Assembly: GCA_964588985.1 (NCBI GenBank)
Contig: CAZPQW010000037.1
Coordinates: forward strand, 1 to 24,422
Length of the DNA: 24,422 nt
Origin: an uncultured Solirubrobacteraceae bacterium
GTDB lineage: Bacteria; Actinomycetota; Thermoleophilia; Solirubrobacterales; Solirubrobacteraceae
Direction: 5' to 3'
In this document: piece after piece, positions 306-1,423 of the stretch
Numbering within the stretch: the first letter of the stretch is position 1
How the letters are laid out: each line of letters starts with the position of its first letter
The notes under the pieces: model-generated
Told to the model about the DNA's origin: nothing
What the model saw: the letters and a program-made list of their open reading frames with translations, nothing else
The model's database searches: none
Program-made: the position numbers and the translations under genes

Positions 306-1423
306 GCATCTCCCGGCTTCCCTCTGGCCGCTGGAGGGCGCAGGTCCATGACCCTTCGCTGGGGAGGAACGTGAGCGTCTCGCGCATCCTCGGTGGGTCG
401 GGAGCGTTCGCAACGAAGACCGAAGCCAAGCAGGCCCGCGCCCAGGCGCGCGAACGGCCCGGAGTGATCCGCGAGCGGGATCTGACCGTCAGGCGGTTCT
501 GGGAGCGCTGGACGACCGATCCGCTGTTCGCGCGGCCGAAGGAGTCCAGCGATATCCGCCGTCGCGAGCAGACCAAAGGGTTCGTTGAGCGCTACGGCGA
601 CGTCCCGATTTGCCAGGTGGGGGACGAGATCGTCGCGGAGTGGCTCGCGGGCGGTGGGCGCACTGGGACGGTGATGGGGCTGTCCTCGATGTTCAACGAC
701 GCGGCGTCGATGAAGGCGGGGAGGCTGATTGACCGGAACCCGTTTGAGAAGCTCGGTATCTCGCGTGGCAAGGGCCGTCGTGACCAGCAGCCGCCAAGTG
801 AGGAGAAGGCGTGGGAGATCATCGCGCGTGCTCGTGATCTCTCCGGCCCATCCTTCGCGGCATGGCTACAGGTCGCGGCGTTCACGGGCCTGCGGCCGGG
901 TGAGCTGGATGCGCTGCGGTGGGAGCGGATCGACTTCGCCCGCGACCGGATCATCGTCTCGGAGCAGTTCAACGCCGCGACGCGGAAGTTCGACACGCCG
1001 AAGAACCACCAGCGCCGCGAGGCGCCGCTGACCGCACATGCCCGCTCTGCGCTTGAGGGGTTGGCGCGTGAGGGCGAGTTCTGTTTCGTCTCGCTGCGTG
1101 GCGAGCACTGGACGCCAAGCTCCCGCGCCTACCACTGGAAGGCCGTACGCGCCGCTTCCGGCTGGAAGGGGAGCCTGTATCTCGCGACCCGGCATTTCGC
1201 GGGCTGGTACATGGTCAACGTCCTCGAGATGTCCTCCGAGGACGTAGCGATCGCGCTCGGGCACCAGGACGGCGGGAACCTCGTGCGCCGCCTCTACGGG
1301 CACCGCGACAGAAACCTGGCGCTCGACCGCATCGTTGGCGCGTACGCTGAGAAGGCTGGACCCAGCATGTCTCGGCCCGCTCCTACGGTGGTACGCGAGT
1401 CGAAGCAGGAGCGGTTGTTCTAA
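302..1423 (+). CDS. Tyrosine recombinase/phage-type integrase
   Basis: N-terminal arm-binding-like GRWRAQV; box I AFTGLRPGEL; TPK lysine; box II LYLATRHFAG...ALGH...RRLYGH (catalytic Tyr). Confidence 0.93.
   Translation: MSISRLPSGRWRAQVHDPSLGRNVSVSRILGGSGAFATKTEAKQARAQARERPGVIRERDLTVRRFWERWTTDPLFARPKESSDIRRREQTKGFVERYGDVPICQVGDEIVAEWLAGGGRTGTVMGLSSMFNDAASMKAGRLIDRNPFEKLGISRGKGRRDQQPPSEEKAWEIIARARDLSGPSFAAWLQVAAFTGLRPGELDALRWERIDFARDRIIVSEQFNAATRKFDTPKNHQRREAPLTAHARSALEGLAREGEFCFVSLRGEHWTPSSRAYHWKAVRAASGWKGSLYLATRHFAGWYMVNVLEMSSEDVAIALGHQDGGNLVRRLYGHRDRNLALDRIVGAYAEKAGPSMSRPAPTVVRESKQERLF

Follow-up and report, generated by a model that had tools for sequence, protein, structure and literature searches.

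A conserved QxxLF ending behind a disordered linker on a tyrosine integrase of Solirubrobacterales islands, a candidate sliding-clamp-binding peptide

The stretch of DNA analysed here (the window, 24,422 nucleotides) is the entire contig C37 of a 3.4-Mb genome of an uncultured member of the Solirubrobacterales. Its left part carries the gene of an intact, probably lambda-type tyrosine integrase, which we call int1, and further downstream the remnant of a second integrase gene, which we call copy 2 (Table 1). Both coding sequences end in Q-x-x-L-F immediately before the stop codon, QERLF in int1 and QQSLF in copy 2, and both endings were confirmed in position and codons. The original prediction proposed that these residues bind the DnaN sliding clamp and so tether the integrase to the replisome. 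We show here that the ending is conserved among relatives behind a linker that is free to vary, and we weigh the sliding clamp against other possible partners of the tail.

int1 encodes a complete enzyme. The product matched PF00589 at 35.6 bits, above the curated cut-off of 27.1 (E 9.8e-9, residues 187-334), and its AF2 model, which had a mean predicted local distance difference test (pLDDT) score of 89.7, gave an E of 1e-11 in a Foldseek search. The model could be aligned with Tn1549 Int over 278 residues (Z 19.5, root mean square deviation (rmsd) 3.6, model residues 60-351), with residues 75-356 of lambda Int over 261 residues (Z 17.4, rmsd 2.9), and with full-length lambda Int (1z1b_A) over 304 residues (Z 18.1, model 1-346 to chain 14-356), the high rmsd of 10.9 in the last case arising because the domains are posed differently. 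The N-terminus was modelled as strands at residues 3-5, 11-17 and 22-25 and a helix, a domain seen within the whole-chain model and alignment only. Catalytic residues were assigned to the classical R-K-H-R-H/W-Y set by sequence pattern (GLRPGEL, PKN, TRHF, LGH and LYGH). In 138 aligned sequences Y332 and H321 were invariant, and R198, K234, R297 and H298 were conserved in at least 90%. Like lambda Int and Tn1549 Int, int1 has what appears to be a three-part fold, conserved catalytic Tyr, His and Arg columns, and a small helix-turn-helix (HTH) gene upstream, but its sequence identity to them is 17-19%, and the solved enzymes stop at the last helix of int1, with no counterpart to its 21-residue linker and QxxLF ending.

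Table 1. Features of the window discussed in the text, with positions counted from its first nucleotide
Feature	Position	Strand	Basis
Small HTH protein, 86 aa, likely excisionase or recombination directionality factor	45..305	+	Open reading frame; TGA stop overlaps the int1 GTG start
int1, tyrosine integrase, probably lambda-type, 373 aa, intact	302..1423	+	PF00589 match, AF2 fold, conserved catalytic residues
Codon TAC of the catalytic tyrosine Y332, in ...RRLYGHRD...	1295..1297	+	Invariant column in alignments A4 and A5
Last ordered helix of int1, residues 337-352; end of the canonical recombinase fold	1310..1357	+	DSSP; structural alignments
Variable disordered linker of int1, residues 350-368, EKAGPSMSRPAPTVVRESK	1349..1405	+	pLDDT; DNA identity; entropy
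Terminal Q-E-R-L-F of int1 and stop, candidate sliding-clamp-binding peptide	1406..1423	+	CAG GAG CGG TTG TTC TAA
Element-end repeat, 72 nt; 3' end CGCCCCGA matches the tRNA-Pro 3' end	2421..2492	+	Direct repeats D10, D12 and D14 with 6206-6281; alignment to tRNA-Pro genes of relatives
att-like remnant, tRNA-Pro 3' end and flank, just 5' of copy 2	4323..4355	+	81% identity to L063:2886-2964
Copy 2, integrase remnant, 5'-truncated, about 160 N-terminal residues gone	4632..5267 (approx.)	+	84% identity over int1 residues 159-373, one TAG
Linker of copy 2, TQAGENRLKQRSSSPAPSQ; same length as the int1 linker, sequence unrelated	5193..5249	+	Offset alignment
Terminal Q-Q-S-L-F of copy 2 and stop	5250..5267	+	CAG CAG AGC CTC TTC TAA
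Second copy of the 72-nt element-end repeat	6206..6281	+	Repeats 2421-2492, with the same CGCCCCGA tRNA-like ending

Beyond the last helix the pLDDT of the int1 model fell below 50, at residues 358-361 and 363-373. In structural alignments, model residues 346-353 were already paired with the C-terminal ends of the solved chains (395-397 in Tn1549 Int, 356 in lambda Int and 341-343 in Cre), and therefore the linker and the motif are an add-on beyond a complete recombinase fold, the C-terminal segments of those enzymes included. The tail is predicted to be disordered and to lie outside the canonical fold. None of the three other integrase-like genes of the host has a comparable tail.

The original prediction spoke of two integrases. 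As its reading frame stands, copy 2 is a truncated pseudogene, and int1 alone is intact. Copy 2 resembles int1 only from about 4620-4634 (int1 residue 159-165) onward, and an in-frame TAG occupies 4767-4769, where int1 has GAG. The strong divergence of two tails of the same length, which had also been noted, was borne out by an ungapped comparison at an offset of 3844 nt. The two copies were identical at 515 of 558 nt (92.3%) over 790-1347, at 20 of 57 nt (35.1%) in the 19-codon linker, at 13 of 18 nt in the motif and stop, and at 19 of 77 nt (24.7%) downstream of the stops, with the break in identity at the AYA codons. After ...GAYA each tail has 24 residues (EKAGPSMSRPAPTVVRESKQERLF in int1, TQAGENRLKQRSSSPAPSQQQSLF in copy 2). 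The Leu codon of the motif is TTG in int1 and CTC in copy 2, and therefore it is the protein, not the DNA, that is common to both endings.

Integrase copies truncated at the 5' end were also seen in five other genomes (L051, L055, L059, L063 and L071), with breakpoints at query residues 81, 106, 109, 144 and 148. In these five the catalytic domain and a QxxLF-type tail lie in an open frame; an internal stop was present only in the window copy. The copies of L051, L055, L059 and L071 are syntenic with small genes like those at 5277-5850 of the window, and the L063 copy lies about 100 nt after a tRNA-Pro gene. Such recurrent truncated copies could reflect repeated erosion or a retained protein made of the catalytic domain only.

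A word-indexed search returned 771 relatives of int1 at E <= 1e-5, and we classified the endings of the best 120 of them. Thirty end in Q..LF, 6 carry Q..LF within the tail and 3 have x..LF[D/E]. Another 37 end in Q..L[VILMW], mostly as TQMRLV or TQLRLV, and 12 have TQMQL followed by an extension. The remaining sequences were 29 classed as other, many with LRLV, LELV or V[RK]PLRxV, and 3 without the catalytic-Tyr anchor. We also examined 80 genome loci, all from Solirubrobacterales metagenome-assembled genomes: 18 end in Q..LF, 14 have it internally, 2 have LF[DE] without the Gln, 25 end in Q..L[VILMWA], TQxxL occurs with an extension in 9, an LRxV-like form is seen in 3, and the last 9 are other, among them several with visible frameshifts.

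Because these tail-type groups are defined by the motif itself, we built a tree on the catalytic-domain columns only. It contained 138 rows: the window, 100 of the best 120 homologues, and 37 full-length representatives among the 150 listed of 3181 family matches. Twenty homologues were removed by hand, among them P0021, which is short, the three lacking the Tyr anchor, and copies extended at the N-terminus. In the clade that contains int1 (43 rows, support 94), 28 rows end in QxxLF, 9 have xxxLF[D/E/G] plus an extension, 4 are LRxV-like and 2 are other, so that the LF motif stands behind a variable linker in 37 of the 43. The sister clade (50 rows, support 99) holds 26 rows with QxxL[VILMWA], 11 of the TQMQL type, 3 with QxxLF, 2 LRxV-like and 8 other, and the deeper branches have LRxV forms or no recognisable tail motif. 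The pattern that the original prediction expected among homologues was found: a terminal QxxLF or QxxL[VW] is kept behind a linker that varies both in sequence and in length.

The linker and the motif could be compared column by column in the 30 homologues that end in QxxLF. The linker is 15-24 residues long in 29 of them and 55 in one; entropy per column is about 2.4-3.6 bits, with about 65% of the linker residues being A, R, S, P or G. At the motif, position 2 is only E, Q, G or D and position 3 only R or S. The codons of the motif vary synonymously: in the 18 QxxLF loci Gln is CAG in 14 and CAA in 4, Leu is CTG in 7, TTG in 10 and CTC in 1, and Phe is TTC in 16 and TTT in 2. We also considered whether the shared ending is a DNA-level site laid over the stop codon, such as an att core or a terminator. 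This was excluded, because the Leu, Gln, Phe and Arg/Ser codons differ synonymously among loci and copies.

The ending is rare in the host. A crude host gene set was made up of 2346 open reading frames (ORFs) with a minimum length of 150 aa, which together cover 81% of the genome; in it the only product with a C-terminal Q..LF is int1, and the only one with a C-terminal QL.L.[VLFIM] is DinB. When the last 25 residues were searched, Q..LF occurred in 5 of the 2346; two of the four other than int1 were scanned with Pfam and proved to be a glyoxalase and a FliW protein. Among ORFs ending in Q..L[FVWLIM], Pfam named two, a DUF1802 protein and a methylase-like protein. Since loose matches of this kind are found in unrelated host proteins, a loose motif match alone is weak evidence. 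Taken together, the persistence of the motif across homologues, its synonymous codons and its rarity among host ORFs indicate that the conservation is real and acts on the protein. It is well supported that the terminal Q-x-[R/S]-L-F-COOH is a conserved short linear motif under protein-level selection.

The tail also behaves as a module. Nested among the bodies of the QMRLV clade, three carry QxxLF tails with long linkers and a fourth ends in RERLF, and in the window itself 92%-identical bodies bear unrelated linkers. This distribution of tails shows that the module has been exchanged between integrase bodies, evidently by recombination.

Relatives on viral contigs (41-69% identity) have a different ending. 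Of the 18 tails examined, 13 carry [LI]-R-x-[VAI] and none carries QxxLF, and therefore we regard QxxLF as a derived feature of the chromosomal island lineage. Deeper relatives (P0042-P0045, P0094-P0116 and P0128-P0268, and the viral loci L183-L203 on contigs of 17-65 kb) have the ending ...V[RK]PLR[LAV]V, with 0-7 residues after it. Tails of this form resemble both the NucS tail of the host clade (P-E-L-R-L-F) and the ClpX-binding XB peptide of SspB.

What could such an ending bind? For clamp-binding peptides two papers give the consensus Q-L-S-L-F/L, in which conservation is highest at Q1 and L4 and which often lies on a flexible C-terminus (PMC3971601), and QL[S/D]LF (PMC11417375). QERLF and QQSLF fit it at Q1, L4 and F5. 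One of the homologue endings, QESLF (found in 5 of the 30 with QxxLF), is the very peptide that was deleted as the clamp-binding element of Mycobacterium smegmatis DinB1, as described in part of PMC9346131.

Two accepted clamp clients can be followed within the clade of the host. DinB has a variable low-complexity linker; its ending is QLx[LFM]x[VLM] at 25 of the 29 loci (L120-L149), with a variant in two more and no such ending in two; the DinB of the host itself ends in QLALPV. All 28 NucS/EndoMS rows (L155-L182) have P-[E/D/A]-L-[R/T/K]-L-F with 1-5 residues after it, and the NucS of the host itself ends in PDLRLFAA. The C-terminal motif of NucS binds DnaN and is required for function in Corynebacterium glutamicum (section 22 of PMC6159521). 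The endings of DinB and NucS in the Solirubrobacterales are presumed to be clade-specific flavours of clamp-binding tails. By its pattern of residues, the L-R-L-F form of NucS is a bridge between the integrase forms QERLF, QMRLV and PLRLV. int1 resembles M. smegmatis DinB1 and C. glutamicum EndoMS/NucS in its build, a folded enzyme followed by a low-complexity linker and a terminal clamp peptide, which in int1 is a candidate one; it differs from both in that they are repair enzymes whose dependence on the clamp has been demonstrated (in the parts of PMC9346131 and PMC6159521 that treat it).

We predicted the complex of host DnaN (gene at L001:1501-2613; 26-row alignment) with int1 residues 334-373 (137-row alignment). 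The result was graded as 'weak support', with a score of 0.52 (0.53, 0.47 and 0.52 in the single runs); the best of three controls scored 0.31 and the other two 0.00. The mark for this score is reached by 116 of 157 solved complexes and by 2 of 215 mismatched pairs, counts that are approximate here since custom alignments were used. With scores of 0.60 or less, it is reached by only 18 of the 157 solved complexes and by both of the passing mismatches. The runs agreed in at least 38% of contacts with a partner pLDDT of at least 37, and no interface was reported.

From these results we favour the reading that the QxxLF motif is a DnaN-binding peptide, and we give it a probability of about one half. 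Past the recombinase fold, which runs to about residue 352, this integrase lineage bears an add-on made up of an unconstrained disordered linker, 15-24 residues long, and the conserved Q-x-[R/S]-L-F-COOH. In the manner of the DinB and NucS tails, the motif would place its L-F and Q in the hydrophobic cleft of the beta sliding clamp. Through the flexible linker the integrase would then stay attached to clamps at or behind forks, where DNA is being replicated or has just been replicated. Integration or excision would thereby be favoured at replication forks or on newly arrived DNA that is replicating, as has been shown for clamp-binding transposases. For an enzyme with a fixed att site, one can speculate that the benefit lies in the timing of excision, in targeting of or preference for incoming DNA that replicates, or in replication-aided resolution of recombination intermediates. 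As to the part of the original prediction that named the clamp, the premises held, namely a disordered tail outside the fold, its likeness to the DinB and NucS tails and the identity of QESLF in 5 of 30 homologues; docking on DnaN itself fared less well and drew the 'weak support' of one complex prediction.

A wider claim is doubtful, although it would join the forms described above. Tyrosine integrases of actinobacterial islands and prophages may, as an entire lineage, use the sliding clamp as a host factor, the tether peptide having evolved through P-L-R-x-V, Q-[ML]-R-L-V and Q-x-[RS]-L-F, the last forms being NucS-like and DinB1-like, and having been swapped as a module that docks DnaN so as to time or place recombination by forks. 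If this is true, coupling to the replisome, so far known only for transposases and retroelements, would extend to a lineage of integrases.

Several observations weigh against the clamp as the partner. C-terminal segments of tyrosine recombinases such as lambda Int, Cre and Tn1549 Int make inter-subunit contacts. Where QL[S/D]LF has its hydrophobic L, at position 2, the motif has E, Q or G. The deeper relatives, those on viral contigs included, lack the Gln and have P-L-R-x-V, often with 4-7 further residues; therefore a family-wide partner, if there is one, must accept P-L-R-x-V too, and other partners are possible. This same form resembles the SspB XB peptide, which binds ClpX. In the QMRLV-type homologue P0055 the motif was modelled not as a free peptide but as the end of a long helix (residues 337-359), with a pLDDT of about 66 in the last block. 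The complex score of 0.52 falls in a band described as 'more often wrong than right unless the guess was likely beforehand', and because clamp-peptide complexes have already been solved, the pass may reflect likeness and not binding. As for the conservation counts, the homologues are kin and not independent, and since the tail-type groups are defined by the motif itself, circularity is avoided only in the counts for the clades of 43 and 50 rows.

The tail may instead act within the recombination complex, its motif packing on a neighbouring protomer or on its own catalytic domain in the synaptic tetramer and thereby controlling cleavage. The closest solved relatives of int1 are lambda Int and Tn1549 Int, two of the enzymes with inter-subunit contacts of this kind; the helix of P0055 runs on into the motif; and a short hydrophobic C-terminal motif (LRxV, QMRLV or QxRLF) is kept through the wider family. 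However, the C-terminal elements of lambda Int, Tn1549 Int and Cre are already matched by about residue 353, so that the linker and motif are extra, and the AF2 monomer leaves the tail undocked, with pLDDT below 50. An unconstrained linker of 15-24 residues and the swapping of tails between diverged bodies better suit an external partner, and plain hydrophobic packing would give no obvious role to the conserved Gln that stands three residues before L-F. We consider an inter-subunit or autoregulatory tail unlikely.

A linear motif on a flexible tether says only that something binds, and the partner could be the upstream Xis-like protein, a nucleoid protein or some other factor of the element or the host. 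The xis-like gene is translationally coupled to int1, which speaks for the first of these. Nevertheless, our analysis supports no specific candidate, and the motif closely fits the known clamp-binding class, the exact variant QESLF included. That the motif binds one of these factors is in our judgement improbable.

The chances are slimmer that the tail is a tag for an unfoldase or protease, either a tether of the type bound by the ClpX N-domain or a C-terminal degron, that keeps the integrase low or remodels the recombination complex. Terminal, disordered tails with a hydrophobic end are typical of degrons. The deeper integrase relatives resemble SspB in having a disordered linker and a short terminal peptide of the L-R-V-V type (VKPLRLVK..., VRPLRAV...), so that their ...V[RK]PLR[LAV]V[KR]... 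recalls the XB peptide RGGRPALRVVK, which was used to bind ClpX in experiments described in part of PMC3983244. In the window, however, the tails end in QERLF and QQSLF and not in LRVVK; they have neither the L-R-V-V-K pattern nor a terminal basic residue, and both the protein family and the phylum differ from those of SspB. Moreover, P-x-L-R-L-F is also found in the clamp client NucS, so the LRxV forms are not specific to ClpX. To our knowledge, SspB-type adaptors have not been described in Actinomycetota.

That the shared ending reflects chance or recent common descent and has no function is very improbable: the two window copies are indeed relatives and the motif of the pseudogene is under no selection now, but the motif is kept in dozens of homologues whose linkers are at random-level identity, its codons change synonymously, and a terminal Q..LF is unique to int1 in the host ORF set.

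Clamp binding by the proteins of mobile elements has precedents. Peptides like QL[S/D]LF are found in Tn7 TnsE, in insertion sequence (IS) transposases of many families, in Tn3-family TnpA, in IS200/IS605 TnpA and in a group II intron protein, and int1, as a protein of a mobile element with such a peptide, resembles them. In the transposition proteins a short peptide, often on a flexible C-terminus, docks DnaN and links mobility to replication (PMC3971601, PMC11417375, PMC4549789, PMC4678854, PMC5027513 and PMC6698660). Such peptides are an established replication-sensing route for transposons (Tn7, IS elements and Tn3) and for the group II intron. Unlike these transposases and the reverse transcriptase, int1 is a site-specific integrase, probably lambda-type, with a fixed att site at tRNA-Pro, and its clamp binding is predicted. 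Since the att site is fixed, the choice of target cannot be the purpose of a clamp tether in the way that it may be for the transposases. The int1 tail is solid in its conservation and inferred in its partner.

Integrases of phages and islands in the tyrosine family are thought to need only DNA-bending host factors. In agreement with the original prediction, which held that a link to the clamp had not been described for phage-type integrases, a literature search that left most subscription journals outside its reach found no paper linking a tyrosine integrase or site-specific recombinase to the sliding clamp. If the tether is real, conservative site-specific recombination can also couple to the replisome. 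This could affect the timing of island excision, which of the sister chromosomes keeps the island, and whether replicating incoming DNA is favoured, and for a large soil clade that is uncultured, the five residues would provide a simple, testable handle (LF to AA). Should the tail bind something other than DnaN, the results still establish that a family of integrases carries a conserved, modular C-terminal linear motif, whose partner would then merit a search.

The island that carries int1 can be placed by comparison with its relatives. The left edge of the contig lies only 44 nt 5' of the xis-like gene. The HTH protein encoded by this gene gave Pfam matches below threshold only (HTH_17, E 0.01; Phage_Nu1, E 0.0045), and its role as an excisionase is likely from its location immediately 5' of int1. 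Relative L018 has a 4.8-kb island between 33-nt direct repeats (161-193 and 4986-5018), the repeat beginning inside the 3' end of a tRNA-Pro(TGG) gene, and the island contains an IS110-type transposase, a small HTH gene, an integrase and a DUF2283 gene. The L018 segment that is homologous to 2421-2492 of the window adjoins this 33-nt att repeat. The first element-end repeat of the window is probably the right junction (attR) of the int1 island, and the second copy is probably the right junction of the decayed island that carries copy 2. The stretch of L063 that matches the att-like remnant before copy 2 overlaps the tRNA-Pro end of that locus.

Only right-end or att-like copies are present in the window because the contig starts 44 nt before xis. 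No tRNA gene was found in the window, and only 3 of 60 related loci had one within about 3 kb, always a tRNA-Pro and always upstream; for these reasons the att sites are not definable from the window alone. The tRNA-Pro gene of the host and its att flank are on another contig (C29:33051-33201), about 4.8 kb from its end. The comparison with relatives shows that the int1 island is of a small type that sits at tRNA-Pro in Solirubrobacterales and that a second island, older and in tandem, left its eroded integrase as copy 2. The arrangement of the window fits a tandem array of one live island and decayed ones.

The IS110-family transposase gene of the L018 island lies at L018:1439-2521 on the reverse strand. 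Host contigs C16, C20, C22, C28 and C29 have at their ends a 42-50-nt piece of this region, and this probably explains the assembly break just left of the window.

The sole cargo gene between int1 and the first element-end repeat encodes a DUF3800 protein (1559-2401, +; E 2e-4, just above the cut-off). Between two island junctions, the gene at 2598-3887 (-) encodes a 429-aa protein that starts with a PIN domain (E 6e-11) and whose long C-terminal region has no Pfam match, and a small ORF lies upstream of it at 3892-4137 (-); the two may be a toxin-antitoxin-like cargo pair. The Pfam scan gave no match for 3892-4137, 5277-5591, 5876-6058 or 7597-8199. On the 3' side of the integrase remnant (5277-6058) there are a 104-aa ORF, again without a Pfam match, a gene for a 94-aa ribbon-helix-helix (CopG) protein, and a 60-aa ORF. 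The last of these shares 70 nt with the 5' part of the ribbon-helix-helix gene (5616-5685 and 5919-5988, 77% identity), apparently through a partial duplication.

Farther to the right, a Fic-type protein is encoded at 6382-7467 (+; Pfam Fic, E 6e-13) with the motif HPFEDGNGRISR. A second Fic-type protein, at 12026-13528 (-), was judged from its translation alone, which contains HPFIDGNGRTGR. The 587-aa ORF at 19860-21623 (-) has two H-x-K motifs in its translation (HNKTIVL... and HHKFVVID...), suggesting an enzyme of the phospholipase-D/HKD type.

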